The notes under the pieces were generated by a model that ran no database searches, was not told the origin of the DNA, and saw nothing but the letters and a program-made list of their open reading frames with translations. This document shows positions 5,547-39,502 of a DNA stretch of 64,000 bases, piece after piece. The stretch lies in assembly GCA_965645245.1 (NCBI GenBank), contig OZ287071.1, positions 2,790,001 through 2,854,000 on the forward strand. Direction: 5' to 3'. Position numbers and translations under genes: made by a program. The DNA is from Massalongia carnosa. Taxonomy: Eukaryota. How positions within the stretch are numbered: the stretch's first letter is position 1; each line of letters begins with the position of its first letter.

Positions 5547-5578
5547 AGGGACCCCTTCTGAACGTCTTCGGGGGCGAC

Positions 5579-6862
5579 TTAGCCCGAAGACGACGCGTTT
5601 TCCGAGACCTCAGCTAGAGAGGACTCGTTCAGCCGAGAGGTTCGCGGCTTGGTTTCTCCCTTTCGAGGGCAGACGGCCGCAAAATGTCCTGACCCCCCAC
5701 AGTAGCGGCACAACCCTTCGTTCATCCGACGGGTGACTTCTGCTTGAGGTAACTTACCTCTGTGTGTGGCGGAGAGGTCCATTGGCTCGGCGGCCGGAAG
5801 GGGAGACGGGGAGGCGGCGGAAGAAGAGACGGATCGGGGGAGGGCGACTCCTCCCGACAGGGGGTTATGAGGGGGGGTCCCCACACCAGAAGAAGGTGGG
5901 GCGGACCGGGGGGGGTATGGCTTCCGGAGGGAAGCATTGACATTCCGTTGGCGGGTGTCTAGCCGTTGGAGGAGGGTCACCAGTTCGTCGAGGTCCTCGG
6001 GAGTGATTTGGGTAACCATGAGCTGCTTCAGCTCGTCACTGATGCCTTCCAGCAGAGCTGAGCGCATTGCCTCCTCGTCGAAATTGGTATCCGGGGCAAT
6101 ACGCTGGAAGTCCGAGAGGTAGACATGGAATTCCTTATTGGCCTGGCGCAGGGACCGCAGTTCCCGCTGTGCCGTGGCCTTTTTGTCCGGGTCCCCAAAG
6201 GCCCTCTCCAACATAGCCAATAACCCTGCCACATCGGGGATACTCACTTCGTTGTGAGACTTGACGTAGGGTTGCACTTGCGCCATGGCACGACCCTCTA
6301 AGCGGCTGATGGCGTACAGAAGGCCGGCTTTGGGATTCGTGAAACGGTCTTGATTCACAAAGAGCTTCAGGTTAAGCTGGGTGACCCACTCGCGCAACTC
6401 GTCCTTCTTGCCCGAGAACTTCGGGATGTCCGGCAATTTCTCTGAGCGCGCCTCGCGCTGGGCGGTGGGTTGATGATGATGGTCACTGATCTGCTGACGG
6501 AGGCTGGCGATGGTGGCTCGAGAGGCGATGTTCTCGTTATTGGAGGTCTGCAACTGGCTACGGATATTATTATGCTCAGCTTCCAGAAAGTCATACTGAT
6601 TTGATTTTTCCGTTAGAAAGCCCTGAAGGGTCGCTGATCGGTTGGCGGACTGAATGGCCTGATGATACCATTCATGAGGGAATTTTTGGACCGATTGACT
6701 CCAGGCCTCAATAGATGCAACATGAGGGGCGAGAGAATCCTCGTCATCGAAGCTTGGGGGGGAAAGGCCAGGACTTGATTCGGAACGGGGCGTGGCTATC
6801 TTGGACGAGGAACTGGAAGCCATACTAAAGAGGTGAATGAGAAACGAGGAACGGAGCACCAC
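5579..6862 (-). CDS. gag: Gypsy Gag
   Basis: PKFSGKKDELREW retrotransposon-gag motif and CRYCGGSGHFAAVC zinc knuckle. The likely ATG is at ~6823. Confidence 0.93.
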   Translation of the reverse strand: MVLRSSFLIHLFSMASSSSSKIATPRSESSPGLSPPSFDDEDSLAPHVASIEAWSQSVQKFPHEWYHQAIQSANRSATLQGFLTEKSNQYDFLEAEHNNIRSQLQTSNNENIASRATIASLRQQISDHHHQPTAQREARSEKLPDIPKFSGKKDELREWVTQLNLKLFVNQDRFTNPKAGLLYAISRLEGRAMAQVQPYVKSHNEVSIPDVAGLLAMLERAFGDPDKKATAQRELRSLRQANKEFHVYLSDFQRIAPDTNFDEEAMRSALLEGISDELKQLMVTQITPEDLDELVTLLQRLDTRQRNVNASLRKPYPPRSAPPSSGVGTPPHNPLSGGVALPRSVSSSAASPSPLPAAEPMDLSATHRGKLPQAEVTRRMNEGLCRYCGGSGHFAAVCPRKGETKPRTSRLNESSLAEVSENASSSG

Positions 6863-9206
6863 CTGAACACGGGTGAGGTGTTCGTAATGTGACGAGGCGG
6901 CAACGGGGGGGCCTATTCAGGTGGTGAAGGTGGTGGCATTGCTAGCTATGACTATACTAGATAGACAAGACGAACACAAGGAAGAAAGCATCAATTGCTG
7001 CAGAGATTTTCCATGTAACTCCCGGAACCCATTTCCTTACCTGAATGCGGTTAGCTCCCCACTAAGGCTAACGCGATACCTAAAACATTTAGCGTGTCGG
7101 GAGGTATCGCTTAGCAGAGCATCTCGCGCTCACACCATGACACAAGCTATGCCATTAATGTTCTCTTGTCTTAAGATCGCTTTAATTATCATGCCTCTCA
7201 AGACCTTAGAAGCTCAACAGTGCAAGAAATTGAGCGTTATCGAGGGATGCAAGCCTTTCGTGTTGGACGGTGATAGTAATAATTCTTCTAATTTAAAGTT
7301 AATTCGTGAAAACAATTATACGCATGGTGTGTATTCAAATTATGATTGAGATAAATATAAAAACTTACTCGTTAATATGAATAGTTTTTACTAGCCCAGA
7401 GATAGCGACGTCAAAGCTGTTTAATCAGGAGGTTCTGAGGCATCCAAGTTTCTTCTTGAATTTATGTCTTTTAGCTCTTGATGAGATGCATCTTGTATCC
7501 GAATGGCGAGATTTCCGGCCCGAATACTTCAATCTCGGTGTGCTTCGTACACGATTACCAGATGGTATTCCTTTTCTGGGTGCGTCTGCAACGCTGGATC
7601 CAAGAACCCTAGAGAGCGTTAAAGATCGCTGTGGCTTTGATAACGAAAGTACTGTTATTCAAACAGCGCTTGATCGTCCAGAGATATACATACAGACAAG
7701 CAGTCTACAGCGGCCTATGAACAGCATGATCGATCTTCAACATCTTTTACCAACACGGGCTGAGAGTCCTTTTGATATTCCGAAAACGATTATCTTCATG
7801 GATTCAATTTCATCTATCAAAAAGGCGTGTGCGCTAATGAAAGTATGGATGAATCAATTGTCCTATCCAATTGAGGCTGCTAGTTGGGTCGCGCCTTTCT
7901 TTTCCGACATGGCCACCCAAGACAAAGAAAGGATTGCGGCTCGCTTCGAAATGCCCTCGAATCAATGTAAATTTCCTCGAATCCTGATCGCAACGGATGC
8001 ATACGGGCTTGGTATTGATAATCCAGACGTTATGAGAGTTACGCAATGGCTGCTACCCTCGTCAATGGCGAAGCTATACCAACGTTTAGGTCGTGCTTTG
8101 CGTTGCGGTCGAGGACAGGCGCATTTTACTCTTTTGCATCCTTCTTGGTGCATGGGTCCAAGAAGCGGATCAAAAATGGACGAACAGGACGGATATGACG
8201 CGGGAATCGAGATTGAATCCAAGGCCAGTAAACGCCGCATCAATCAAAAGGATGCTGATCGGCGACGAGATATGCCACCGGGTCTTTGGGAGATAATCAA
8301 TGTGCCTTCAGATGGTTGCGTTCGAGGTATTGGCTTGAATTTCTTCAATGATAAAGTGTATCCAACGTCGGCCTATGTTAAGCCGCAACCTTGCTGTTCA
8401 ATTTGCGATCCAAGTTTTCAGACATCAACAGCCGCCAATGAGATGTTAAATAGAACGGCCGAGCGTGACTCGTCTAGGCGGCCTTGGTTCACCCTTAAAC
8501 TTCGAGAATGGAGGGAGGCCAAGGCGCAGGAAAAGTTCCCAAATTCACATATGCGATACTTCCCATCATTGATAATGCCCGATGAGGTACTGAATTCTTT
8601 GACCACTTGGGCGGATCAGATTGTGGACGAGCCCACCATGCGGCGATGGATTGGTAACACATGGACTGGTATTAGGCCCTACGGCGCCGAGCTTTTAGAA
8701 ATTTTAAAGCGGGGTCAAGCAATGAGATTAGACGAGGGAGACATGTTCGAGGAATGGAAACGACACAACGACATAAAGAGAAAACGATTACCCAGCCTAA
8801 CATGCAACTCCGCCAGTATTGAATTTGAGGAACGGAGGAAAAACTGGATGATCAAACAAGGATATATGTCGAGAAAGGTTTTTAAAAAGCGAAATGCGGT
8901 CAAGAAGAAAGTCTCGAAGGAAAGCGAGAGCACGGAGCCATCGGGCGAGAATCCTGCGCCTAATCACAATATCTCCGATGCGGCGCTCGTTGTTGACAAT
9001 GTTGATGCTCTTAAATCATCGATGAAGGCATCAAAGACCAAAAAAGCGCCTCGAGATCCTATGGAAGCGTTGTCGCTGAATGTACCCATGGCCCTTCCTC
9101 CGACACGATCTAGACAAGAAAGAAAGTGCCCCGTCCGCTACCTCTGACTCTGTAAAGCCGCGCGGCGCGGATTTACATGACTAGGCTATCTCGTGGTATC
9201 GATGAT

Positions 9207-11885
9207 TTAATCAAAAAACATACCGCCGGATATCTCGAGACGGGCCATTGAAATGACAGGGCTGTCGGGGACCTGCTTTGTTTCATTGACAAAATCGGGC
9301 TCGGCTTCATACTTACCCTCAAGGTCGTCTGTTGAAATTTCTTTTGAAATTTCTTCGGAAAGATACTGCTGATTGTATTTTAATACATTTTCTCCAAGTT
9401 TCTTCAATCCCTCAACATAAAGATTAGCTGTTGGATTAGTTGAAAATCGATCATAGCTTCTTTTACAGAGTGATTTATGCGCTAGTGCCGTAGCCATGCC
9501 CCACACATCCTCTGCGGCCGATTTTGCTGGATGCCTTGAAGAGTTGACTCTTCCAAAGTAAAACTCAACGATTTCTTTGAGCTTCATAAGATATGGACCG
9601 TTGAGTGCCCAGTTCTCGAGCAAGGTGTCACTATACTTTGAAAAATAAGATCGCTCGTGCTGGAACGTCTTGAGGTTATTGTTTAGTATCTCTAAAAGCC
9701 GATCAGTCTCAAAACTCGACTCTTCGTCACCGCGTAAATTGACAAGACTATTCATTAAAATACTTTCCTGTAGCCTTATGGTCGCTGCGGAAGAATCAAT
9801 CGCATGAAGGGTGTATAGAAGAGCTTGCGCATATTTCGGGGTGCCAGCTACGCTTGCCTGAAAGATCACCGTTGCGTGGCGCAATGCGTGACGAAGTAGT
9901 CCAATATCCGCATATTTGATTGCGTATCGAAGTGTTAGATACGATTCAACGTGATCACAGAAGTTCTGATGATTCTGAAATTGTTGATCAAGCGTTGGAG
10001 GAAGCATATCTATTGACGTTGAGGGTAATTCCGCGTGAAGTTTGCGAGATATCCTGCCCAACATATTCATCCAGGTGCCATCCTGCCCGCAAGTCTGCGC
10101 TGTGAGCCACGAAATAGTTGCTTTGATTCGCTGCGGAGCATATCCATCCTTTCGTAAAAACCTAATCCACGTCCCAACGATTCTAGCTTGATAGCTCTGA
10201 ATGATCAGATCCTCTAAGGCCTGGAAATCGTTCGGCTGCACGACACGAGCGCGGCCCCACCGATCGGCGGCATATTGAAGAGTCGAAGGATCAACCGGCT
10301 GGGCCTCTCCCCAATGTATTTTATGAATAAGCTGCAGCATGTTAAAGCGAAGATGCCATAACCCTAATCCCGGTAAAATCCAGTCGAACCGATCGAAAGA
10401 TTACTCCGATATCCCACGACGTAATTCCTTAACAGATTGCATTCTCGACCATGTCTTGAGGTCACCATAGATAAGCCGAATGACGCTCGCAAACGTCGAG
10501 TCATCCTCCTTGAACTTGAACTGTCGCACAAATATATCCTCCAATATTTGAATATTATTAGATGTTGTGCTCTCATCCTTCATGACTGGTTTGATAGGAA
10601 TGTAATTGGTCTTGTATTTTTTCATCTTATTCAGCACGGGCATTGCAGTCGACCAAGGAAGTTGAACGTCGCCGATCTCTGGGCCATAAAGCGCTCGAAT
10701 CGCTGACTCTAGATGATGAAGACGAATCTAGGTACGCGGTGCATTAGCGATTGAGCGCGGTATATACACCTCGTCCTGTATTGAACTCACCTGCATCTCG
10801 AGATCACCAGTCTCCAGCTTTCGCGCAATTCTTTCAGCTGATAAAAGATGCGTGGCGGGGCGCCACATATCCTGCCTCAAAGCGCCGGCATCGAATCCTT
10901 GCCCCTGGAAAATTAGAGCGGTAGTGATTGATCTGACGTCTCTATTATCCCCCGTGCGCTCTCCTCGTTTACCTTCTGCGAAGTCAAAGTTATCGTATGT
11001 CAAGATCATGTTTGAGCCTTGTCCTAGCATCTGAACCTTTCGTTCGGCCTCCTTAATCAAGGACAACATGCGCCGCTGCAGGGTAGTATATGACATCGTC
11101 AGGTCAAAATGACAGAGTGTATCTAGAACTCGCCGCCTCGCCCCACCTTGATAAATATAAAGGCCTAAGAGGGACTGAATATTGGTCGCCTTATTTGGTC
11201 GCAATTTGTGACAAAGCATTGCCAATATAACGGTGTGCCGGCCGCTGGGAGAATCCAACGTCACATCGAGAGGTTCCTGCGGGCGAGCCTCGCGACAAAC
11301 ACTATCAATTAGCTCAAGCCATCGTGGCGCCAACTGCTTGGCGGCAGATGCAGCAAGTTTAATAGCCTCCAAGGTCCCAAACTCGACTGTCGCAGAGGGC
11401 GGCTGGAAAGGGCCAAAGGCTGCGTGATCTGCCAAAGCTTTGATTTCTTCACGAAGCACATCCGCGGCCCAAACCCATCCTCTCTCGCGAAGGATAGTGG
11501 ATATTCTACCAGGCCCAATGAGGCTTGAAAAGTCTTCTTGCCGCACAATATCGACATAGACAAAATCGAAGAGCTGGCCTTGCGCCTTTCGCATACTATG
11601 ACGGGCTCGATTCATACAAAGTGTTGATAAAAAATCTTTTACCGACCAATTTAGAGAGCTCAGAAATTTAAGCACCTCAACCAGCTTGTCGTAATCTGAT
11701 ATGCGCCGGCGGTGGCGTTTCGCGCCTCCATTTTTTTCAGGTAAGGCAGGAGGGGAGGAGGAAGAGGGTGAGCTATCATTACTGCCTGACGGCGATGGGT
11801 GGGGCCGCTTGAGCGCACCGGCGGGAGTCAAGGGACTTGTCCGTAGGTCGGTAAGTGGCGAGGAGGGGCCCCCGACAAGAGCCAT
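9207..11885 (-). pseudogene. Academ-type (DUF6589-like) transposase with one intron and one nonsense codon
   Basis: Exon 1 11885-10791, intron 10790-10728 (GTGAGT...GCTAAT...TAG), exon 2 10727-9207 with an in-frame TAA at 10401-10403. Motifs TYDNFD, DEST..NIQILE, YGDLKT, GLWH, AIKYADIG, KYA, ETDRLLE. Confidence 0.8.
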
Positions 11886-12987: not shown

Positions 12988-15900
12988 TGTAATGGGCTAC
13001 GAGACCAGTAAGCTAATCACGAGCGACACTGATCTCGAAAGGGGAAATGCTCAGCGTGAGAGGTGGAAGATAGCTACTACGTGCTGGTCTCCGAGAGTAT
13101 ACGTGATCCAAAGAACTAATGGATGTGGAAGTGCTTAGACCACCAAGAGATCCCGTCCGAGACCCAAACGTAGGTTGTTCATAGAATAAAGACTAATTGC
13201 TAACGAATACTACAGGATTCGTTCTGGTATTTATCCTACTCACCCCAAGCCTATAGCCTTGGGAGCCTTGGAACCTTAGGAGCCTTGCAACCCACATCTG
13301 ACCTTATCGCCTTACATCCAACCATCCCTCAGGATCCATCTACGAACTTTAGACAGAAAATAGTGTCAACTATCGCCCTGATAAAACTAAGGGTGTTGGA
13401 TATGCCTTTCGAGGTTATCCCTATGCTACCGCTCAAGTATCCTATGGAAGCCCCGCTCTGATGTCAGAAATATGCTTGGATTCCGGAACTTCGGTTACTA
13501 TGGGAAATCGTGCTTATCTACAGAAGCATGTTCCAGATCTCGTCATCACTAGAATGGCATCTCCGGTTCCTATTCGTGGAGTAGGTAAAGGCGAGGTAAG
13601 AACAGATGAAGTAGCTCTTGTACAGGTAAATCTTGATGGAATCTCCAAGGATGGTCTTGCTACTGGCGTAATAATCATCGAGGTCGACATAGTAGATAAC
13701 CTGAAAGTCAATCTACTCATAGGAAACGATGTCATGACGCCTCAAGGTATGACCTTAGACTTAGGGAAGCAGATCATGACGATCGATAGTTGCAAGGGCA
13801 TCAAGCTACCCATCAACAGTCGTGCCCGTGTTACTCCACACATCAAGCGCACGATCCGATCTAAGAATGCCTTCACTGTTCTTCCTGGAACGACCATGCG
13901 CGTACCAGTCACTTTCAATGGACAGTTACCAGATGACAGAGATTTTCTCTTCGAACCACAGCTGGCAGCCAGTCATGACTTGGGGCATGAGGGAGGCGTT
14001 TTCGCCCACATAGTAGACACTGACCTATCATGGGTAAACATTCATAACGCTACCAGCACTCCGGTGGTTCTTCCGAAGAGAGCTCGCCTAGGATCAGTGG
14101 TAGAATACACGCACCATGGATGCTACATGACATTACCAGCGGAAGCCCATCTAGCTACGTCAGGATGGAAGACTGGAAGATCTATAAGATCATTAATCAC
14201 AAAGGGAGCGGCCTTAATGGCTACGGCTTATGCCACATCCGTATCATCTAGTGGCACAATCGGTGTTGATACCACCACTTCGATAAAACCCACCTCAGTT
14301 ATAGCTCCCGATATGGAGATGAAGCTATTTAACGGAGTTACCGTTTATGGCCATATCGGTATGAATCAACCGCTCTCTGACCTTGTCACCGAATACCAAG
14401 ATGTGTTCATCGATCAGGGTACGACCGTGGACATTCCGGAGGAAGAATGGATGCCCATCAACCTGAAATCAGGTATCGTACCAAAACCGCCCGCGAAGGT
14501 GTACCCAATAGGACAAAGAGATAAAGAATGTATCGACACAACTTTTTGATAAGCTTCAGGAACAAGGAAAACTTAAGTTCACCACTCAACCTACAACGTT
14601 CAGCTTTCCATGCTTCGTAGTGTAAGAGGATACTCCAAGTGGACGAAAGGGTAGAGTAGTCATAGATATCAGAGGACTTAATGACATTACGGAAATAGAT
14701 AGCTATCCCTTGCCTTTACAAAGCGATATCATCGCAGCGGTCTCCGGTTATCCTTATATCAGTACGGTGGACGCAGTGGGTTGGTTCTACCAGTTTAGTG
14801 TTCAACACAAGGATCGGCACAAACTAACCGTTGTTAGTCATAGGGGACAAGAGGAATTCGGAGTAGCCTTAATGGGATATAAAGGAACTCTACCCTATGT
14901 TCAACGACAAACTGACAGGCTGCTACGGCCGTACATACCGTAAATTCGCTAGAGCTTTTATGGACGACATCATTATATTCAGCAGCACTCTGAAAGAGCA
15001 CGTAGCTCATTTACGACAGCTGTTTGACACGTTTCGACTCAAACGAGTCAGTCTAGCACCTTCCAAGTCATTTCTGGGATATCCATCCGTCATACTACTC
15101 GGTCAGCGCGTGGACTCCTTGGGAATGTTAACATCAGAAGAAAAAATAGCCGCTATTACGTCTCTGTTGTTCCCAATCAATCTACGAGACTTAGAAATAT
15201 TCCTTAGACTCACCAGGTGGTTGCGGACGTCTATCCCGCGATACGCTCAAAGAGCAAATCCTCTTCAAGAACGAAAAACCGCGCTAACACGTACGCTCCC
15301 GGTCATTTCCAAGGGTCCTGCCCGTAAACGGCAGTCTATTCGAGTATTCTTCTATGACCGACCACAGAGGAAGTGCTAGCCTTCAAGGACTTGCAAGACG
15401 CGTTCAGGTCTCCTAGATTTCTGGTTCATTTCAGCCCCAAACGCCGTCTTTACGTGGACCTAGATGCCTCGAAATCCTGGGGATTCGCCGTATAATCTAT
15501 CATGTCAAAGGCGATATTCTCATCATTCCAAGTGCTTATTCCCGCCCAAGCTGACATTGAACCGATTATGTTTCTTAGCAGGTGCCTCAACTCCACCGAG
15601 AAGAACTACTGGCCGACTGAACTAGAGATTGCCGGCATAGTATGGGTTGTACGAAAAATCAGGCACATGATAGAATCGACAGAATGCCCACCTACCATCA
15701 TATACACTGATCACTCAGCCGCTATTCCCATCTCCCGTCAAACCAGTATGACTACATCGAGCACTGATAAGCTTAACTTAAGACTCGTTCGGGCGTCACA
15801 GTACTTGTCTGGATTCAATCTTACTCTGCGTCACAAATCTGGTAAAACCAACATCGTCCCGGATGCCCTATCACGCCTTCAAGCAGACGTATCTACAGCT

Positions 15901-16671
15901 GAAAAGATAGGCGAACTGGAAGCCTTGTATGGATGCCCGGTTAACTTGGCTCAGCATGAGCTAAGTTCCCTACTACCAGACCTAGCTCCCGTAGCCTATC
16001 ACGTCACACTGGTAGAAATGGCGGATGAGTTCAAAAATAGGCTCAAAAAAGCATACGATGATGACTAATATTGGGAAAAGATTTTAAACCTAGTAAAACC
16101 AAAGGAGAGCGACCTGTCCTCAATCAACGAAGGTGAGGCAACCGAATTGACGATCGACAATTCCACCCCACCAGAAGGCTCCCGCCTTGGAATTTGCTTT
16201 CGCTATAGAGATGGATTATTATACTACGTATCAGCCGACGATGGGCGAGAGCGATTATGTATACCCGCTTCCCTAGAGGAGGAGATCTTCAGGCAAGCTC
16301 ATGACAGGACCAGTCATGGTGGCTTTCATAGAACCTATGATCGGATAGTTAACTCGATCTACATACGTCACCTCAATAAAAGATTGAGAACGTACATAGC
16401 GCATTGTCCGGAATGTCAGTTGAACCAAACCAAGAGGCACGCACCATATGGAGAACTCAATCCCATTGTCACTCCGGCTATGCCCTTCCACACCATAGCA
16501 ATGGATTTCATAGTGGCATTACCAGGGACGCCTCCAGACTGGTATGACAGTCTTCTCACCATCACTGATAAGTTCTCAAAAAAGGTGCTATTGCTACAAG
16601 GAAAGACCACTTATGACGCAGTCCAATGGGCCAACATAGTCATTGTGGCGCTCTTACAACATGATTGGGGC
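12988..16671 (+). mobile_element. Deleted and truncated Ty3/gypsy element
   Basis: The first ~360 bp match the solo LTR at 32126, then jump into pol. Motifs CLDSGTS, FMDD, DLDAS..NYWPTELE, HGGF..CPEC, MDFI. Several stops and frameshifts; ends at ..QHDWG inside integrase. Confidence 0.88.
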
Positions 16672-17022
16672 TATTGGAATTTGCCGAGATACCTGAATAT
16701 TTGCGACCGAGGTTCTTTTGCCTCCTGCTTACTAATTTCCAGATTAGGCAATCATATGCTATATGCGAAAAGCTTCAGATATCGGCACGACTTCGGCAAC
16801 TACAGTCGACTGCAAAAGGTTGGTCGCGACCCTGAATTTGGGACCACACATCAAATATTTACGCGAAAATGGCAAAATGCCGGCAAAAATCCGAATAACT
16901 ACCCTCACCGCCTACATGCCAATGAAGTCGTACTACTGGTCAGTATTGAAGCGACTTGTAGATTAGTATATGTAGATGCCATTCCCCGTCTTTTTCCCTC
17001 TCTCCTCTGCCATTTTCCCAAA

Positions 17023-18067
17023 ATGCCCCCCCCTCTCAGTGAGACCCTTCGTGAGACAATCACGCTTCGTTTTGTACGAGATGACAGCAATAAGACAATT
17101 GCATCTGTCACTGGTGTTGGCATCAAACAGATTCAACGAATGAGACGTAATTGGACTCATTTTGGAGATGTGGTTCTACCTCAATTGTCAATTGGACATC
17201 GCCCTCGTAAACTCAGTCAATTTCATGAGATTGAACTTCTGAAATATCTGGAGCAACGTCCGCATGCCTATCTGGATGAAATGTGCTGGTTCATTTGGGA
17301 CGGATTTCAGATCTCTGCAGATGAGACCACCGTTGGTCGTGCCCTAAAAAGGCTTGGTTGGAATCGAAAGAAGGTGATCAAACAAGAAGCTCAAAGAAAT
17401 CAAGGCCTTCGAGATGGATGGATGCAGAGACTCGGAGAATGGACTGCAGAGCAATTGATCTTTTTGGACGAAAGTGCAGCTTGCGAAAGAACCGGTTATT
17501 TCCTATCTCATCTTTCATCCCATCTTCGTCATTTTTCTCACTTTCTGACTAGGTGATCGACGATACGGATGGGCTCAGGCAGGCGTCCCTCCAATCATGA
17601 TTCAGGATTTGAAAAGGTCAAAGAGATGGAGCATTCTTCCTGCATTTACCGTCGATGGATATATAGCTTGGGAGGTGCATCAGGGCTCCATAACTGCCGA
17701 AATTTTCAACGACTTCGTTCGAAATCAGGTTCTTCCTCAGACGACTGCCAATGGAGGTCCTAGATCTGTTTTAGTACTAGATAATGCCAGCATTCATTGG
17801 AATCAGGAGCTTATTCAGATGTGCGAGACAGCCAACGTCACCTTGGCACGACTACCTCCTTATTCTCCAGATTTCAATCCAATTGAAACGTCGTTTGCAT
17901 TGCTAAAGGCATGGATTCGACGGAATGGAGAAATGAGTCTTTCGTACACGGAGGAGTATGGGGGATTCGGACAATTTCTTCGGGATGCAGTCAAAGATCT
18001 GAGAATGGGAGACCCCGGAAATTTATTTAGATTGGCTGGCATTCAGTATCCAACCATTTCAATCTGA
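17023..18067 (+). CDS. Tc1-like DD34E transposase (intron 17495-17552)
   Basis: N-terminal HTH region; FLDES, VLDNASIH, LPPYSPDFNPIE with 34 residues between D and E. The spliced frame is open. Confidence 0.92.
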
Positions 18068-18082
18068 TTAGATACATAGTAT

Positions 18083-20248
18083 CTAATCCTCATCTTCATC
18101 TTCGGCATAATCGTATTCTAGACTATGCGTCTCATCTTCCTCAATTGTATCTCTCACTCCAGATCCTACCTCCCCGCCCCCGTCCACCTCCCCATCCTCC
18201 ATCCCCTTATCCACCCGAGTGACCGCCTGAGTGACCGCCTGAGTAGCCATTTGCGATGTCGGTAAATGGCGTTGACGCCGAGGGGGAGGCGGGGGCATTT
18301 GCTGAGATATCTGTCGAGACATTTGTCGAGACATTTGCAAAGGCATTTGCCGAAACATTTCTCTTCCAAATTTACTGACGTCTCGCGCCAGTTGAATCCC
18401 GATTCCCGGAGGAATTCCTAGTTCCTGCCAGAACGTCTGATGCTCGATGCCTTTCAAGGATTGAACGGTCATCAGATCGTACCCACCTTCCATCAATCGA
18501 TCGCAGGCGTTGGTGAGCACTCCTTTCAAATGAGGCTTCATTTGAACGAGCCAACTGACATAGTCTTCCAGATCTTCTTCCACTGGACTGCTGCGGGCGA
18601 TGGAGGGGAGAGGGAGAAATCGACTCACGCTTCGACTGCTTCTGGATGATCTCGAATCTCTCCAATCCAACGGCGTTTCCTCACGGGCTCGTCTCGAGTC
18701 AGGTAATGTAGAAGGAGCATACTGAGAAGGATAAAATGCCGAGGGGGGAAATGCCGAGTGAGGAAATGCCGAGGGGAATGCCGAGGGAAATGTCGAGGGG
18801 AATGCCAATGACGAGGGGGGAAATGTCGAGTGGGGGTTTTGGTACGAGTGGTGTTGATACATGGGATGTTGATAAATGGAATGCCCACCTCCAAAGGGCA
18901 TTTCCTGAGACGAGGTTTCCTATTTTGGAGATGATGATTCAGTCTTTTTCTTACCTTTATTCAGGGAGAATAAATTCTCTCTGATCTTCGGTGGAGGTGT
19001 TCAAGAATCAACGCCTGAAATTCCATCATCTAGTGCTTTATTCCAGGTCACGAAATGAGCACTGTTGAGAGGATAATGCTGATTCTTCGTCTCATCATTC
19101 CAACAGTACTGTCCGAAATTCCTACATGCGTGTTTTTCACAGAGATGCAGACTTTGCAATTCGGACATTCTTTCGGCCGTCATGCCTTGCAACATGGCTC
19201 GTTCCTCCATCTCTTTTTGCAGCTTCATGGTCGCGGTTCCCAATTTCTTGGTGGCGACAGCTGTGGCAGCAGCAATAGGATCATCGGGAGGAATGACGCC
19301 ATCTTTGGTACGACTGAAGTTGAAAATAAGATCAACCGCGAAGCTTTTCTTTCGAATGCTGCTGTCTTCTAAATGAATTAGAACCTCCTCAATGGGCTGC
19401 CAGGATTCGATCAACATGAGAGCTGATTTTTCATGCGGTTTTATTCCATTCCATAACACGGTCGCTTTGATATCGACCAAATGACAAGCATACATTTTGC
19501 AATTCGCATACGTCTCGGCTTTCAAACTCATGTCCCCGGTGTAGCTTCTCAAAAAGAATCTTTTCGACGTAGTTGAATTGACTTCGTATGGAATCACCGT
19601 CTCGAAAAACGACGTGCTTCTCATACGACATCTTCACATTTAGTAGATATTTGATTACCATCGGAGGCAGTGGCGAAGGGATAAACGGGAGGGTTCCTTT
19701 CTTCTTGGTTTTCTAGACTTCTTACTGACAATCGAGTTACTAGGCACATTGAGATCTTCGACATCATCTTCGGCATCATCTTCGGAATCATCTTCGGCAT
19801 CATCTTCGGCATCTACAGCTTTCATCGCGTTCTCCTTTCTCCACTGACCCTGCCACCTCTGCTTCTCGTCTTCATCCGTCCAGTCGTCGGAGGAATCCTC
19901 CGTAATGACAAGGGGACTATAATAATTCGATTCGAAAGTCTTTGACTGCTGAGGCTGGACCTTTGACTTGGGAGGGGCCTTTGGCTTGGGAGGGACCTTT
20001 GGCTTGGGAGGGGCCTTTGGCTTGAGGGGGGCCTTTGGCTTGAAGGGGGGCTTTGACTTGAGGGGAGGCTTTGGCTTGGGAGGGGCCGGCGTCGATTCCG
20101 GCGAGGCTTCATCGATGCCGGCGGCGACAATGGCTCTGGCTCTCGGCCCTCCCAAAGTCAGTTTGATTCTCTTACCTTTGAAAGGCTCTTTTCCAGCCGG
20201 GGGGGGGCCGGAATTTGATCTTTTTGCTCTCGGTTCACAAAGTTTCAT
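18083..20248 (-). pseudogene. Uncharacterised second gene inside the Tc1 element (~700 codons)
   Basis: ATG at 20248 just inside the right TIR; probable short intron 19658-19617. ORFs 19001-19624 and 18083-18901 share a frame and are separated by TGA and TAG codons. PK-rich repeats, acidic tract, C-x4-C-x6-C..H..W motif, SAM-like C-terminal region. Confidence 0.7.
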
Positions 20249-20605
20249 ATCTGAGGTAAAAAATGGGGAATGGCAGAGGGAAAAAAGACGGGGAATGGCA
20301 TCTACATATACTAATCTACAAATCGCTTCAATACTGACCAGTAGTACGACTTCATTGGCATGTAGGCGGTGAGGGTAGTTTTCAGATTTTTGCCGGCATT
20401 TTGCCATTTTCGCGTAAATATTTGATGTGTGGTCCCAAATTCAGGGTCGCGACCAACCTTTTGCAGTCGACTGTATGGATATCATTCAGCCGCGCAACAA
20501 TAACAGCTTGACTGATGCTTTCTATACCACTCATTTCCAAAGCCAGCCTCTGCAAATTCCTACCAGGCTAGTTGTACAAGTCGAAGAAAGCTAGGACCTT
20601 CTATC

Positions 20606-23600
20606 ATGCCAGATAAAGATTTATGCCTATTATCTCTTGATGGTGGTGGAGTGCGAGGGCTATCGTCACTCGCAATCCTCAAGCGACTGATGGAGATCAT
20701 CAATCCGGATGCGCCGCCGAAGCCATGCGAGTATTTCGACATGATCGGAGGGACAAGTACCGGTGGATTGATTGCTATCATGCTAGGTCGTCTTGAGATG
20801 AATATCGATGAATGTATTGATGCCTATGTCGCATTGTTCGATCAAGTGTTTAAAAAAAAGCGGCATCGTGTCACAATAAACGGACACGTGCAGGGGAGAT
20901 TCGACACGGAAGAGCTGGAACGGTCGATTCGAGAAATCGTAAAGCGGAAGGAGAAGGCAGGGGAAAATGCTCTCCTCAAAGGATCAGAGAATCAGCAATG
21001 CAAGGTGTTAGTGCTTCGGAAGTTGCATTTACACGTATAATTCTAGTGATACTAATGAAAGCTAGATTTGTATGCGCTCTGAGCAAAGAGACTGCCGACA
21101 CAGTCCTTTTCACATCGTATCCTTCTCGAGGATCATCAGATATGTACCATAAGACACGAATTTGGGAGGCAGCTCGAGCCACATCTGCCGCATCATCCTT
21201 CTTTGATCCAGTTAAAATTGGCCAGTTTGAAGAAGAGTTTGTCGATGGGGCTGTGGGGGCTAACAATCCTGTCGCACATCTTTGGAACGAGGCCAAAAGT
21301 GTGTGGTCAGATGAAGTGCTTGAGGGAAACATCAAATGCCTGATATCTATCGGTACCGGTGTTCCATCCTTGGATTCTTATGGCTCAAGCCTCTTCGAGA
21401 TTGCAAAAACATTGAAAGACATTGCAACAGAGACAGAAAAAACAGCGGAGTCTTTTCATCGAGCGCATTCCGATCTCGACGATGGGAATCGCTACTTTCG
21501 TTTCAATGTTTCTCATGGACTTGAGAGTATTGGACTCGAAGATGCAGCACAGAAGAACAAGATCATGGCCGCCACAACCCGCTATGTGGCTTTGGAAAGC
21601 GTGATGAAACAAATGAAGCTTTGTGGAAATAATCTTTCAACACGAGAATGTGCGTCAATGTTTGCTTGATAATTCTTGAGTTACTAAATCCTTGAATAGA
21701 TAATGGTTCATATAAAGTGCCGTTCAGTTTGAAAGGCTTACTCCCTGTACCCAAATTCATAGCTCGTGATCAGGAAATGAATGACCTCAAGAATACCCTT
21801 TTCCCAAAACCAACTCGTGAGACTCGCCGGAAGGTGTTCGTTTTGCACGGACTGGGCGGCTCCGGCAAGACTCAGCTAGCAATCGAGTTCGCTCAAATAT
21901 CAAAGAAGATTTTCAGTTCTATTTTTTGGCTAAACGGTGATAGTAAGGAAAGTGTAAGTCAAAGTCTTGCACAGATTGCTCGGCAATTACCCCCAGATCA
22001 GATTCCGGATTCATGTATAAAATTCTCTAAAACATCCCCTGAAGAGCTAGATGAAATCATTAGCAATATTCTTATTTGGTTCAGTCGACATGAAAACAAT
22101 CAATGGCTTCTCATTTTCGATAATGTAGATCGTTCCCTTGAGGTAAATGATCCTCAATCATATGATGTGAAAGATTTTTTCCCGGAAGCCGATCATGGCT
22201 CTATTTTAATCACAAGCCGATTACGACAACTTTGACAACTCGGGCAGGACCGGCAACTTGGAAGGATGAGCGATCTACAAGGAGTAGAAGTATTACGATG
22301 CAGGATTGGACGATCAGTTGAAGGTAATGAAATTCAAGCAACAGTCTAAATCCAATTTACTAAGCATTATATAGGCCTTGATAGGATCGTCGAGAAAGTG
22401 GGTGGTCTCCCACTTGCACTTGCTCATGCAGGCTCCTATATCCACGGAACGACTACAAGTGTGAACGACTATATTCGATACTATGAAGAGACTTGGGAGA
22501 AGCTTCACAACAACAAAACGACTCGATTAATAGATTATCCTCGTAGCATTTTATCTACGTACACCATTTCCTATGAACATGTGCAACACAATGACGCGAG
22601 CGCTGCAAAATTGCTTAATCTGTTTGCATATCTCGATCATTCAGATTTATGGTATTCTTTATTCACACCTATACTTGACGAAGACGAGAGCATTATCCCA
22701 AAAGAGACATTACCTATCTGGTTTTCAAGTAGCGTGAAGACGGAATTTGATTTTACACAGAAGATTCAAATACTGCTGGATTACTCCTTGATAGAAACAC
22801 GATATGAGATCTCATCTTATGCGATTCATCCAATTATACATGACTGGTGTTTTCACTTGAATCTAACCTCTAACGACGAGATAGCTTCTTTAGCAGTTTC
22901 TGTAATTGGTTCCGCATGTCATTCCACTGGCAGTTCAGCAAACTGGCTGCATCGAAAACGACTGGCTGGTCATTGTAGTTATGTTCACTTCTGGATTGGA
23001 AAAAAACATCAAAACCTCGAAAGGAATATGAGATGGGAACAGGTACTATATCCTTCGTATCATGCTATTGGCTATTTTTCAAACGAACAAGGTAAGATGA
23101 ACGAGGCCGAAGAGATGTATCTGCGGGCATTGACAGGATACGAAAAGGCCTGGGGTCCTGATCACACATCAACGCTCGACACAGTCAACAATCTAGGAAG
23201 TCTGTATGCAGATCAAGGCAAGATGAACGAGGCCGAAGAGATGTATCTGCGGGCATTGACAGGATACGAAAAGGCCTGGGGTCCTGATCACACATCAACG
23301 CTCGCCACAGTCAACAATCTAGGGCTTTTGTATAAAGATCAAGGCAAGATGAACGAGGCCGAAGAGATGTATCTGCGGGCATTGACAGGAAAGGAAAAGG
23401 CCTGGGGTCCTGATCACACATCAACGCTCGACACAGTCAACAATCTAGGAAATTTGTATAAAGATCATGGCAAGATGAACGAGGCCGAAGAGATCTATCT
23501 GCGGGCATTGACAGGAAAGGAAAAGGCCTGGGGTCCTGATCACACATCAACGCTCACAACAGTCAACAATCTAGGGCTTTTGTATAAAGATCAAGGCAAG

Positions 23601-23921
23601 ATGAACGAGGCCGAAGAGATGTATCTGCGGGCATTGACAGGATACGAAAAGGCCTGGGGTCCTGATCACACATCAACGCTCAACACAGTCAACAATCTAG
23701 GAAATTTGTATAGAGATCAAGGCAAGATGAACGAGGCCGAAGAGATGTATCTGCGGGCATTGACAGGATACGAAAAGGCCTGGGGTCCTGATCACACATC
23801 AACACTCGACACAGTCAACAATCTAGGAAGTCTGTATAAAAATCAAGGCAAGATGAACGAGGCCGAAGAGATGTATCTGCGGGGCTCAAGCGGCTTTCCT
23901 GTGCCAGGTATGACATTCTAG
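20606..23921 (+). pseudogene. Fungal NLR: patatin-like phospholipase, NB-ARC, TPR (PLP-1-like architecture) with one in-frame TGA
   Basis: DGGGVRG, GTSTG and DGA patatin motifs; GLGGSGKT, LIFDNVD, ILITSR, GGLPLAL. Introns 21007-21065, 21650-21699, 22324-22374. TGA at 22233-22235. 42-aa TPR repeats. Confidence 0.92.
23088..23883 (+). repeat. 126-bp tandem repeats, ~6.3 units, encoding TPRs
   Basis: Units start at 23088, 23214, 23340, 23466, 23592, 23718, 23844 and are nearly identical. Confidence 0.97.
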
Positions 23922-25847: not shown

Positions 25848-28800
25848 TGTTGAAGTGAATTGTTGATCACTATAGTGCATGTACGAATATTTAGAAGGAA
25901 TAGTTTTGATTAATTCTATCGTGGGTGCTTTTGAGCACCCACATCGGCTAAACTACCCTAGGCCCATTCCGGCCAAGCAGTCACCAACTGCCTGACACTT
26001 GTCCGTTAGGCTAATGTTTAGCGTAACATCAACACTCCCACTCAGGCATGGTGTCTGCCTTGGTTGATGCTATTCAGAAATTGCCCTGCCCTACCTCATG
26101 CCCATCATGGCCCTAAAGGCCTGGAACCTTGCTGGTGGTAGCGGCTTTGTCATCCCATCTGCTATCATTTCATTCGTTGAAATGTATGTGATGATTATCT
26201 TTCGGTCTAGTACAACTTCCCTTATCCAATGATGTCGTACGTCAATATGCTTTGTTCGTTTATGGAACTCTGGGTTAGCGGTAAGGTCAATCGCCCCCTT
26301 GTTGTCTGCTCGGAGGTCTGCTGGTTGGTCAGGTCGTCTGTGCCCGAGGGCCTCGAGGAAGCGAGAGCACCATAAGGCCTCCTTCCCTGCTTCAGTGATC
26401 GCCATATACTCAGCTTCGCATGAAGACAGAGCGACGGTCGGTTGTTGTTTTGATTGGTGAGAAATTGGACAGCCCGAAAGCATCCAAACGTACCCACCGG
26501 TCGACTTTCTTCCATCTACGGTCCCCGCCCAATCAGAGTCAGTGTATCCGATTAGTTCATCCGGAGAGTCAGCCGAAAATGTCAGTCCTATGGTCAGTGT
26601 CCCTGCTAAATAGCGGAAGATTTGTTTGACTAGCTGTATGTGGGTGGGTCCGGGGTTGCTGCAATAGCGGCTGAGGACTCCCACAGAATAAGAGATGTCG
26701 GGTCGGGTGTGGACTGCTGGCCACATCAGTGACCCAATTGCTGACTGATACCAGGCCACAGTGGCTTTGTCCGCCACCTGTTTTGAGGGTAGAAGGGAGC
26801 TTGCTACTCCCGGATCCATTGGTATGGAGGATTGCTTGCAGTCGGTCATTCCGAAACGGTCCAGAACCTTTTTGAGGTAGGTTGTTTGACGAAGGATTAT
26901 TGTTTTTCCAACGTCAACGTCAATTTCCATTCCTAAATAGTGAGAGACGTCACCCAGGTTCGTCATTTTGAACCGATCAGATAGTTGTTTTTGTATGAAC
27001 TCGAGGCGGGGTATGTCTGCCCCAAAGAGTAGTAGGTCGTCCACATATATCGCTATGAATTGCTTCTTGTCATCAGAAACAAACACTCCATGATCAAGTT
27101 CCAAGCGATGAAATCCTAGTTTCTTCAGGAAATCAACAAGGGTCTGGTACCACACTTGTGGTGATTGTTTCAGTCCATAAAGTGCTTTGATCAGCTTACA
27201 AACTAGGTGCGGTGTCGGGTTGAATAAATGAGGTTGTTCGACAAATATCAGTTCATCCAGATATCCATAGAGAAAAGCGGTCACAACATCCATATGACGA
27301 ATGGTAAATCCACGTTTAACTCCTACACCCATCATGGCCTTATATGACATGGGCTTGACTACTGCAGCGAAGGTGTCGATGTAGTCTAGACCTTCTTCCT
27401 GCTTGTAGCCATGAACCACCCATCGTGCTTTGTATTTTAGGATATTTCCATGTCGATCCTTTTTCAGTTTGAACACCCACCGTCCGGTGATTACCCGTCG
27501 GTCTTTTGGTGCTTCGGTCAACTCCCACGTGCCATTTTCGGTATGAGATTCAATTTCGGCCTTCATGGCCTCCATCCATTTGGGCCAATCAGGCCTAGCC
27601 ATAGCCTCTTTGAGCGAGAAGGGTTCGTCTGGCCCTTCATTATCAATGTTGTTTGCAAGCATGGTTAGTGCCTTCATCATATGTATGTGGGATTTTGCCA
27701 CGTTTTTGCTAGTGAAGTTAGTTCGTTTCGGTAGCCTACCTGGTCCATAAAAAATTTCATCAGGATATTGTGCTCGTTTGACTGGTGCCCGCTTGGACCT
27801 TCTCAATGGAACATGGTCAGAGGTGGAAGAATTGTGGCCTTCCGAGGCCTCGGGGGTCTCGGGGTCGGTGGCCTCGGCCTCGTGGTTGGTGGCCTTGGGG
27901 TCGTGGGTCAGACTATCATAGGGACTATCATAATTTCCCCCTCCATAATTTTCTTCGACATTTCTCCCTTCTGGCCTTGTTTGTTGTGAATCTCCCACTG
28001 AATTTTGGTGTGAATGTTCCGTGTTTGGAGGAGAATCGGGGGGTGTAGGTAGGTGAGGTTTATTTGACCAAGGGGTGTAATAGTCCTCGGGTTTGTTATT
28101 TCCCTCGTCGTCAAAATCGTCTGGATTTCCGAACTGATCATCGTCTGTTTGTGCCCATTCGTCATCAACAAGCTCGTTTGATTTGTAGGCTTTCCGGTCA
28201 AATAGGTTCTTTTCATCAATAGTTACGTCTCTAGTAACATGAACTTTGCCTGTGCAGGGGTCATATATCCGGTACTGATTGGTGCCTTCATAGCCCACAT
28301 GGATGCCCTGCCAGGACCGTTCGTCTAGCTTCTTTCGTTTTTCCTTGGGAATATGAACCCAAGCACGTGCACCCAACACTCTTAGATGACCGAGGTTAGG
28401 CTTTTTGTTGTTTAGTTTCTCATATGGTGTCACCCCGTCCGTGTTAGGACTTCTGTTCTTCAGATAACACACTGCTTTGATGATTTCAGGCCATAGGCCC
28501 TTCGGTAATTTCATTGCTGATAAGATGGACCGGACTGAACTCATCAGAGTATAATTCAGTCGCTCGGCTTTTCCATTTTGTTCGGGTGTGTATGGGGCAC
28601 TGCATTTCCATCTGATGTGTTGTTTCTTAAGATAGTCCTGAAAGGCTTCATTGTCATATTCACCTCCCCCATCCGAATGGAGTGCTCCCATCTGCATGCC
28701 AGTTTCCTGAGACGTCCATTCGATATATTCCTTTGCCTTCTCAAAGGCCTGGCTCTTTAGCTTCATTGGATAAACATGGTACGTTCCAGTGGCATCGTCT

Positions 28801-39476: not shown

Positions 39477-39502
39477 CGGTTCGGAAGTAACGCCGGCGAC
39501 AG

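Follow-up and report, generated by a model that had tools for sequence, protein, structure and literature searches.

Positions 16803–20473 of the window, by which we mean the whole 64-kb stretch of DNA analysed here, hold a Tc1-like element of 3,671 bp, as read from the window sequence. The element is probably a young copy of an autonomous Tc1-like family (DD34E, DDE_3) of a fungus, itself probably lichen-associated; when intact the family carries two genes, for a transposase and for a second protein, and we read this two-gene Tc1 lineage as an evolved one, laid out like maize MuDR, rather than as a random capture. A two-gene Tc1 element had been placed at these positions in the preliminary description; all of the features described there were found, and the second gene proved to be broken in the window copy. 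Both genes begin a few bases inside inverted ends of about 215 bp and together fill the element, which is arranged as follows.

16801–16802: left TA target-site duplication, read directly and the same as the TA at 20474–20475
16803–17016 (+): left terminal inverted repeat, from the 98.0% match to the right end over 200 nt and three inverted-repeat arms
16868–16874 (+), 16977–16983 (−) and 17008–17014 (−): three AATGGCA motifs in the left terminal inverted repeat, from the motif search
17023–17494 (+): transposase exon 1, with the putative helix-turn-helix region and the first catalytic D ('LDES'), from the open reading frame and an alignment to 40 transposases
17495–17552 (+): transposase intron of 58 nt, GTTATT...CTGACTAG, predicted from the sequence; the join restores the conserved 'ERTGDRxYGW'
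17553–18067 (+): transposase exon 2, with the DDE_3 core, the second D, the E and the stop codon TGA at 18065–18067, from the Pfam DDE_3 match
18068–18082: spacer of 15 nt between the convergent stop codons, from the sequence and the list of open reading frames
18083–20248 (−): second (accessory) gene of about 721 codons, single-frame, intronless and broken here, from tblastn of P0001, near-identical proteins and other runs
20260–20473 (−): right terminal inverted repeat, from the repeat search and end-to-end comparison
20269–20275 (+), 20294–20300 (+) and 20402–20408 (−): three AATGGCA motifs in the right terminal inverted repeat, from the motif search
20474–20475: right TA target-site duplication, read directly

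The inverted match between the two ends bears out the terminal inverted repeats (TIRs) of about 200 bp first proposed; the repeat search resolved them into arms of 95 nt (99%) and 113 nt (94%) and a weaker stretch of 26 nt (77%) that reaches 17016 and 20260. Because the ends are 98% alike, the window copy is young and was inserted recently. The distances given earlier for the start and stop codons hold as well: 220 nt lie between the left end and the transposase ATG at 17023 (+), 225 nt between the right end and the ATG of the second gene at 20248 (−), and exactly 15 nt separate the transposase stop from that of the second gene (TAG, 18085–18083, −). AATGGCA was matched 16 times in the 64-kb window, with six of these matches falling within the two TIRs. 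No further copies of the element were found within the window. The copy is without signs of repeat-induced point mutation (RIP), the indices of the element being 0.42 for TpA/ApT and 1.53 for (CpA+TpG)/(ApC+GpT). In the window, transposable elements of gypsy, copia and pogo type form a nest, which also includes a high-copy fragment (16671–16802).

The first gene encodes a transposase of 328 aa with one predicted intron, and its frame is still open in the window copy. Its match to Pfam DDE_3 (E 1.6e-22) is above the cut-off; DDE_1 also matched, and no MULE-type family did. The assignment to DD34E holds, as a hand count in the translation gave 34 residues from the second D (LDNASIH) to the E (NPIE). 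An alignment with 40 homologues preserves the catalytic columns and also agrees with the splice joining '...DESAACERTG' to 'DRRYGWAQAG'. At the N-terminus, where Tc1-like elements have a paired helix-turn-helix, the putative region matched HTH_33 (E 0.0012) and HTH_32 (E 0.0017) weakly, both under the Pfam cut-offs, and the same two families are carried by the transposase homologues. Relatives of the transposase number 201 at E<=1e-10, the closest being 64% identical.

The second gene spans 2.17 kb on the strand opposite the transposase and is dead in the window copy, being interrupted by two single-base frameshifts and two stop codons. These four lesions split it into the pieces 20248–19655, 19633–19001 and 18919–18083, all in the same frame, and tblastn of the family member P0001 against the window aligned 498 columns at 56% identity, all of them in a single frame that is interrupted by two '*'. 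The same element was found, at about 99.3% identity and with the four lesions absent, on contigs of three other public runs from three studies (X1, X2 and X3), which allowed each lesion to be compared base by base.

18920–18922 (−): stop codon TAG, CAG (Gln) in the other runs; all three show 18922 A>G at full depth; P0001 has Q
19001–19003 (−): stop codon TGA, CGA (Arg) elsewhere, the change being a transition at CpG; all three runs show 19003 A>G at full depth; P0057 and P0053 have R
19605–19609 (−): extra base, TTTTT on the coding strand against four elsewhere; one letter fewer at 19605 at full depth in X1, X2 and X3
19678–19680 (−): lost base, CCC on the coding strand against four elsewhere; G inserted behind 19677 at full depth in X1 and X3

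In X2, the G behind 19677 was present at a depth of 2847.5 of 6065.9. The base missing at 19678–19680 shifts the frame for about 73 nt, down to 19605, and stop codons are met there. Near-identical catalogued proteins read straight through both frameshift sites, and one of them, P0002, reads 'SRLSPSPLPPTVIKY' across that at 19678–19680. The two lesions of homopolymer size (19605–19609 and 19678–19680) could be assembly errors. Introns were rejected as an account of the interruptions: a 93-nt in-frame intron holding both stop codons (starting with GTTGAT near 19012 and ending with the AG in the TAG at 18920) does not agree with P0001, which is colinear and similar there, or with the sense codons of the other runs, and a 27-nt intron bridging 19655–19633 would be too short and out of phase, with near-identical proteins showing two compensating single-base indels instead. 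RIP was likewise ruled out as the source of the lesions by the indices, and the changes resemble ordinary or CpG transitions.

In the versions of the three other runs, the second gene is open (about 721 aa), and so are both frames of the element. X1 is represented by two contigs, of 2511 nt over 16972–19481 and of 800 nt over 19513–20305, which together show 21 letter changes and 10 gap positions relative to the window, among them the four that remove the lesions; none of these differences creates a stop codon. Since an X1 record spans both genes, the two-gene unit is contiguous outside the window. This contiguity bears on the idea that the second gene came from a different element, by insertion into a one-gene Tc1 or by recombination with it, an origin for which one could cite the nest of elements described above, with its gypsy, copia and pogo members and the high-copy fragment, and an X2 contig that diverges from the element at 18058, shortly before the transposase stop. 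We regard such an origin as highly improbable: besides the X1 contig, no inverted or direct repeats or duplications surround 18083–20248, the start of the second gene lies symmetrically inside the right inverted end, and the pairing of the two genes recurs on other contigs.

The other runs also document the borders of the element and speak for its mobility. Their contigs have loose ends exactly at 16803 and at 20474/20477, and in all three runs the right flank of the window is joined at 20474 to a different sequence. The 23-nt motif that precedes the right flank in these runs is absent from the window at up to three mismatches, which leaves the second half of the empty site unplaced. The element family is multi-copy. 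Fragments of the second protein of the window's family form a cluster of eight on megabase-size contigs of seven different sizes, while a second family, 56% identical to the window's, has six members on six different megabase-size contigs. As one contig size occurs in both, the two families are probably present in a single genome.

The second protein, judging from its sequence, is one of a small and uncharacterised family of fungal proteins whose domains are conserved. A search of 1.84 billion representatives brought 46 clusters of this family at E<=0.001, and a word-indexed profile search with a family alignment returned 10 proteins; searches with a further alignment in metagenome and prokaryote genome contigs, and with P0030 in metagenome contigs, returned none. 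Distant full-length relatives of 600–806 aa have the same layout and motifs as the window protein, the common motifs being a basic 'R-[IL]-K-L..GP' N-terminal stretch, a CCCH motif, a conserved Trp, 'SSPV' and a C-terminal domain. The low-complexity N-terminal part (19754–20087, −), seen in the repeat search and the translation, is built of an 18-nt repeat present seven times at 19960–20087, which encodes Lys/Pro-rich hexapeptides, and a 12-nt repeat present five times at 19754–19813, which encodes an acidic stretch. Two conserved domains follow.

19004–19603 (−): central conserved domain with Cys-x4-Cys-x6-Cys-x8-His, from the alignment; model pLDDT 84.7
18338–18607 (−): 'SSPV' motif and a five-helix C-terminal domain, weakly SAM-like, from the alignment; model pLDDT 84.1

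In the family alignment, C247, C259 and H268 of the CCCH motif are invariant and C252 is nearly so, and the serines S6 and S7 of 'SSPV' are invariant in the C-terminal alignment. Identity of the window protein to the P0001 family is 60% in the central domain and 78% in the C-terminal domain, compared with 56% overall, where the linkers are gapped.

Sequence and fold comparisons yielded no clear relative of either domain. Pfam has no family for the window protein or for P0001, and a Pfam search with 18 family members at E<=0.01 gave nothing beyond one chance match; hits to Pep1_7 (E 0.029) and poxvirus 2L_N (E 0.015 and 0.0076) lie far under the Pfam cut-offs and were set aside as chance. A sequence profile search of the second protein against the PDB had a best E of 0.18, with no solved relative. 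For the predicted fold of the central domain, no clear match was seen with Foldseek in the PDB (best E 0.32), with VIA (best Z 5.1) or in BFVD (best E 0.013, TM 0.19). The C-terminal model gave as its best Foldseek match the Scm SAM domain, a weak one (E 0.42, probability 0.85, TM 0.50–0.61), and VIA returned Z 5.0–5.9 for SAM, RAD51-family N-terminal and NusA acidic-repeat domains, values within the range of common helical arrangements. SAM and helix-hairpin-helix domains are thus the best scorers for this model, if weak ones, and neither a SAM nor a Myb/SANT match was found in the second protein with Pfam. Among Protein Atlas neighbours of the second protein, fungal clusters lie at 0.90–0.91 and a SAM-named cluster at 0.79, which we note as leads only. 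Full-text literature searches gave no account of this two-gene lineage among fungal Tc1 elements or of the protein that its second gene encodes.

Contig sizes and phylogeny point to a recurrence of the pairing between this transposase clade and the second-protein family in distant lineages. For the accessory protein P0018 (771 aa) and the top-ranked transposase, P0065 (64%), the source is in each case an ENA contig of 4066 nt, and for the accessory protein P0039 (806 aa) and the fifth-ranked transposase, P0069 (56%), it is one of 10484 nt. Exact agreement in contig size between accessory proteins and transposases occurred three times, where 600 offset controls gave an expectation of 0.35; among the top five transposases it occurred twice, the expectation being 0.013. 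In the third case (2471) the two sources differ, and the agreement may be due to chance. In a tree of 41 rows, the window transposase, P0065 and P0069 fall in one clade of 11 rows with support of 99/95. From the contig sizes we also infer a tail-to-tail order of the two genes in the distant relatives. If the pairing does recur in this way, both genes travel and evolve as a unit.

This bears directly on whether the second gene is merely a passenger, that is, a gene of host or foreign origin, picked up in the past by a Tc1-like element, that hitch-hikes without a role in transposition, perhaps serving itself or the host. Such a history would suit the state of the window copy, where the transposase frame is open while the partner is dead, and the frequency of broken second genes elsewhere, with catalogued copies often truncated or frameshifted (P0002, P0053–P0059 and P0049). 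It would also suit the rapid evolution of the second protein, which diverges much faster than the transposase (identities of about 20–30% among relatives against 50–64%). The same low identity tells against it when set beside the apparent linkage to one transposase clade, which implies a long co-inheritance with conserved motifs. Moreover, no host-like, single-copy or free-standing parent gene, as gene-capturing (Pack-type) transposons would have, was found among the 46 clusters or in cluster look-ups, the family members lying on element-sized contigs (2.4–10.5 kb) or being multi-copy, and the gene is intronless and, with the transposase, fills the element exactly. We consider a passenger unlikely. 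The earlier view of the second gene as an evolved component rather than a random capture accordingly gains from the lesion-free copies in three runs, the multi-copy clusters, the relatives that keep the motifs and the pairing suggested with the same transposase clade; it is weakened by the broken state of the gene in the window.

A retained second gene might also act outside the chemistry of transposition, as a factor that shields the element from host silencing or limits its own activity. VANC is said to protect VANDAL elements from host silencing, and the predicted features of the protein studied here are of a DNA- or chromatin-associated type, namely the basic Lys/Pro repeats, the acidic stretch and a SAM-like domain that could oligomerise. 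In addition, the window-specific changes lean towards G:C>A:T (13 of 23, six of these at CpG), which suggests cytosine methylation or deamination acting on copies of the element. The fold matches behind this reading are weak, however, and we judge a counter-silencing or self-regulating factor to be quite improbable.

Compared with canonical Tc1-like elements of the IS630-Tc1-mariner group (DD34E), of which impala of Fusarium is a fungal example, the element shares the TA duplication, the TIRs, a DDE_3 transposase with DD34E, a putative N-terminal helix-turn-helix region and the cut-and-paste ends. It differs in its size (about 3.7 kb against about 1.3–2 kb), in its long inverted ends (about 200–215 bp), where a short motif occurs three times per end, and in the conserved gene of 721 codons added on the opposite strand, where canonical elements encode a transposase only. 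PIF/Harbinger elements pair a transposase with a Myb-like DNA-binding protein. The likeness would lie in a second gene kept or needed as a DNA-binding helper, which is our working model here; the transposase family and target duplication are different, and the second protein shows no Myb/SANT match. MuDR of maize makes a target duplication of 9 bp and encodes a MULE transposase, whereas the element described here has a TA duplication and an unrelated DDE_3 transposase, and the second proteins are unrelated as well. Its resemblance to our element is one of end size, gene orientation and packing: as far as the published account goes, MuDR has two convergent genes, for a transposase and for a second protein of unknown function, between TIRs of about 215 bp that hold a transposase binding site and promoters, and read-through between the genes yields antisense RNA (PMC3440606). 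Among fungal Tc1/mariner elements, TremE of Paracoccidioides (1883 bp) is described as having a second ORF of unknown function besides a transposase of 335 aa, and by that description this ORF encodes 217 aa and follows the transposase ORF in the same orientation, while the ends of the element measure 42 bp (PMC2836289). The ciliate TBE and Tec elements likewise combine a DD34E-type transposase with further ORFs between inverted ends, and differ, in the account given, in having three ORFs, including one for a zinc-finger protein or recombinase, in their ciliate hosts and in their role in DNA elimination (PMC7325037). The extra proteins of these ciliate elements are not known to be related to the second protein described here.

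We hypothesize that the second protein could be a DNA- or chromatin-binding helper, a reading suggested by its Lys/Pro-rich basic N-terminus, its zinc-knuckle-like CCCH motif and its SAM/helix-hairpin-helix-like C-terminal domain. By analogy with MURB of MuDR or the Myb-like protein of Harbinger, it may cooperate with the transposase, either on the inverted ends or on the target. The inverted ends would drive inward transcription of both genes, and, because only 15 bp lie between the stop codons, the two transcripts would then have to overlap in antisense at their 3' ends. As a joint mechanism, a DNA- or chromatin-binding helper acting with the transposase together with inward transcription from the ends is offered tentatively and remains somewhat doubtful as a whole. 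A broader proposal, to which we give appreciably less than even credence, is that a clade of fungal Tc1-like transposons is obligately two-component, with a new-fold partner (CCCH knuckle and SAM-like domain) that has been retained across deep divergence, is needed for transposition, targeting or escape from silencing, and is expressed from a promoter in the TIR within a convergent layout like that of MuDR.

Tc1/mariner elements are the standard self-sufficient single-gene transposons and the basis of widely used gene-transfer tools. If the two-component reading is true, the lineage described here would be the first helper-dependent one in this textbook single-gene superfamily. A fungal protein family devoid of annotation also gains its first genomic context. 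The case is directly testable, as both genes appear intact in related public data. A retained second protein would imply either that transposition in this lineage needs an extra function, such as end assembly, targeting or nuclear entry, or that the element itself counters host silencing, and either meaning would be new biology for the Tc1/mariner superfamily.

The element occupies 16803–20473 (3,671 bp), with TA at 16801–16802 and 20474–20475. Its termini are inverted repeats of 200 nt at 98.0% identity (blastn, element against window), resolved by a repeat search into one 95-nt arm (99%) and one 113-nt arm (94%), beyond which a weaker stretch of 26 nt extends to 17016 and 20260; blastn revealed no second copy of the element within the 64-kb window. 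Sixteen copies of the heptamer AATGGCA are present in the window, where 9.15 are expected, and six of the 16 lie in the inverted repeats, three per repeat at mirrored positions, where we regard them as candidate protein-binding sites.

The transposase gene begins at ATG 17023 (+), 220 nt from the left end; its frame breaks near 17495, and a second ORF ends at TGA 18065–18067. Excision of a predicted 58-nt intron (17495–17552, GTTATT...CTGACTAG) joins '...LIFLDESAACERTG' to 'DRRYGWAQAG...', the conserved junction of 40 aligned homologues, and yields a predicted product of 328 aa; with the intron removed, neither a stop nor a frameshift was observed. Exon 2 matches Pfam DDE_3 (E 1.6e-22), and exon 1 gave sub-threshold helix-turn-helix matches only. 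The exon 2 protein search returned 201 proteins at E<=1e-10, nearly all with DDE_3 and the best 64% identical. Counted by eye, 34 residues separate the D of 'LDNASIH' from the E of 'NPIE', which bears out the DD34E assignment of the preliminary description.

The second gene runs on the opposite strand from ATG 20248, 225 nt from the right end, to TAG 18085–18083, with a 15-nt gap between the two stops. As both genes start just inside the ends and their stops lie this close, genes plus ends exactly occupy the element; the tight packing reported earlier is thus all directly visible. ATG 20248 is a putative start because of a run of nine G early in the gene (20203–20212), upstream of which the N-terminus of the catalogued second-gene protein P0057 differs, and because other runs have 7 additional nt behind 20275, within the right inverted end.

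The second gene is not open in the window copy, where three ORF pieces share a single frame. The 584-aa homologue P0001 aligned to the window (tblastn) over 498 columns at 56% identity in one frame, with two '*'. Three further catalogued proteins (P0002, P0053, P0057; 97% identity) are uninterrupted over 'SRLSPSPLPPTVIKYLLNVKMSYEKH[VI]VFETVIPYEVN', whereas the window gives this stretch only if the reading leaves the frame at a C-run and returns to it at a T-run. The in-frame stops and these shifts therefore amount to four lesions.

Lesions in the second gene of the window copy, with the change found in run X1
19678–19680 (−), one base missing (C-run); X1, G inserted behind 19677
19605–19609 (−), one base extra (T-run); X1, one letter absent at 19605
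19003–19001 (−), TGA stop; X1, 19003 A>G, TGA to CGA
18922–18920 (−), TAG stop; X1, 18922 A>G, TAG to CAG

Both indels change the length of a homopolymer, so assembly error is in principle a possible source; the two stops are coding-strand C-to-T transitions, one at a CpG.

Public runs were searched with 16303–20973, giving eight holders from six studies, none recorded as RNA; four of the 12 listed runs, from four studies, were compared. The element is present at about 99.3% identity in X1, which is labelled as a lichen metagenome, and in X2 and X3. One X1 contig (2,511 nt) covers 16972–19481, the entire transposase gene plus 1.4 kb of the second gene, with 17 letters different and one gap; another (800 nt) covers 19513–20305 with four letters different and nine gap positions. 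Applied codon by codon, the X1 differences create no stop (the X1 pieces omit 19482–19512), and four of them exactly reverse the four lesions. These reversals stand at full depth in X1, X2 and X3, except for the G behind 19677 in X2 (2847.5/6065.9). The remaining run, X6, which may derive from the window's own strain, gave six pieces at depth 2 that match the window without a difference and lie outside the lesion sites. Among the 23 differences listed within the element, 13 run from G:C to A:T in the window, six of them at CpG, and three run the other way; the element's TpA/ApT of 0.42 and (CpA+TpG)/(ApC+GpT) of 1.53 are far from values of repeat-induced point mutation (RIP). On the run contigs, which leave 19482–19512 uncovered in X1 and may mask rare variants, the common family version has both genes open and the window carries a slightly decayed copy. 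The earlier proposal of an evolved two-gene element is supported, with the qualification that the window's own second gene is dead. Separately, an X2 contig tracks the transposase gene as far as 18058, where it diverges into unrelated sequence, and a 324-nt X2 contig matches 17671–17994 with 44 differences; related elements that differ in their 3' part, or that form a sister family, seem to be present in the X2 organism.

The second gene is multi-copy. The window's family cluster comprises eight proteins on contigs of seven different sizes, and the P0001 family (56% identical) six proteins on six contigs, three of the six full length; one contig size (2,110,715) is common to both clusters, so the two families probably coexist in a single genome. 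The two families are 56% identical overall, with gaps in the linkers, but 60% identical over the central domain and 78% over the C-terminal domain, an uneven conservation of the kind selection would produce. Full-length distant second proteins lie on element-sized contigs (2.4–10.5 kb). Two of them share source and exact contig size with transposase relatives: P0018 with P0065 (rank 1) at 4066 nt, and P0039 with P0069 (rank 5) at 10484 nt. Exact contig-size matches numbered three against 0.35 expected from 600 offset controls (at least three in 0.7% of offsets), and for the top five transposases two against 0.013. The third match (2471) is not relied on, its sources being different. When 41 transposases were analysed by maximum likelihood (the window's exon 2 with 40 of the 120 listed matches, the exon 1 row being left out), the window transposase, P0065 and P0069 grouped in one 11-row clade (support 99/95). 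Copy number, uneven conservation, matching contig sizes and a single transposase clade together support an evolved pairing over random capture, as originally suggested. Among rival readings, a dispensable passenger gene seems unlikely, and a nested chimera is poorly supported and highly improbable.

Against 1.84 billion representatives (phmmer), the central piece matched 46 proteins at E<=0.001, 12 at <=1e-10 and three at <=1e-30. The long family members (605–806 aa) have a single common layout.

Layout of the second protein, N- to C-terminal
Basic N-terminus with 'R-[IL]-K-L...GP' (window version 'KRIKLTLGGP')
Central domain ending Cys-x4-Cys-x6-Cys-x8-His, with a conserved Trp
Pro/Tyr-rich linker
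Invariant 'SSP[VI]'
C-terminal domain with '...GI.PGIG..LA.DV'

Across 13 sequences C247, C259 and H268 are invariant and C252 nearly so. Barring one chance match, no Pfam family was matched at E<=0.01 in 18 members, and profile search found no solved relative. The central domain model (pLDDT 84.7) shows an alpha-beta core, one long helix and a beta-beta-alpha unit with the CCCH residues, with no clear match in structure searches. The C-terminal domain was modelled as a five-helix bundle (pLDDT 84.1), its best matches, all weak, being SAM domains, RAD51-family N-terminal domains and NusA repeats (Foldseek E 0.42, Z 5.0–5.9). In the window, repeats in the N-terminal third encode a Lys/Pro-rich and an acidic stretch. 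From composition and these weak folds, we infer a protein that binds nucleic acid or chromatin and may oligomerise; that it is a counter-silencing or self-limiting factor we consider quite improbable.

Contigs of X1–X3 have loose ends at 16803 and 20474/20477, and two X1 contigs exit the right end into different flanks. In X1, X2 and X3 alike, a single common foreign sequence adjoins the window's right flank at 20474, the appearance that an empty site in close relatives would have; the other half of the presumed empty site was not found within the window. The gene immediately to the right (20606–23921), whose ATG lies 131 nt from the element's TA, joins a patatin-like phospholipase to NB-ARC and TPR repeats, an arrangement of the fungal NLR type. 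Since X1–X3 carry other sequence before 20474, insertion upstream of this gene seems specific to the window genome.

The left flank, 16671–16802, is a fragment (132 bp) of a repeat present in very many copies: contig depth there sums to 4530 in X1, versus 271 beside it, and to 32590 in X2. In run contigs many different sequences precede 16671 and other repeat copies extend beyond 16803; the element sits inside or against this repeat. The two X1 contigs exiting the right end start much like the repeat's continuation. The whole window (1–64000) is a nest of mobile elements.

Other mobile elements, and one candidate, in the window
1602–6916, complete gypsy
7381–10400, helicase C-terminal-domain ORF adjoining an opposite-strand ORF matching DUF6589 (E 2.6e-44); possibly belonging to a further large mobile element
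14873–16670, truncated Ty3/gypsy (reverse transcriptase, RNase H, integrase zinc-finger pieces), cut at 16670, where X1–X3 contigs go on with the integrase core motif
26091–30650, copia; fragments 41469–42518 and 58858–61263
35688–39554, second gypsy
44978–46489, pogo-type DDE_1 gene (TpA/ApT 1.18, which suggests RIP-like decay)

A full-text literature search found no description of this two-gene fungal Tc1 lineage or of its second protein. The closest published element found, TremE of Paracoccidioides, is 1.9 kb with a second ORF of 217 aa on the same strand (PMC2836289), and in the reviews found, extra ORFs in Tc1/mariner relatives are noted for ciliates only (PMC7325037). In architecture the closest precedent of a two-gene element is maize MuDR, which has convergent transposase and mudrB genes, the latter of unknown function, ends of ~215 bp with a binding site and promoters, and antisense RNA from read-through (PMC3440606).

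Together, our results establish a cut-and-paste transposon of the Tc1 type that is flanked by a TA duplication, is bounded by long inverted ends and, in its family version, encodes two proteins. We hypothesize that both genes would be transcribed inward from the inverted ends; with stops 15 bp apart, the two transcripts must then overlap antisense. The closest mechanistic precedent is Harbinger's Myb-like partner, and the second protein of this family may likewise assist the transposase, acting either on the inverted ends or on the target.
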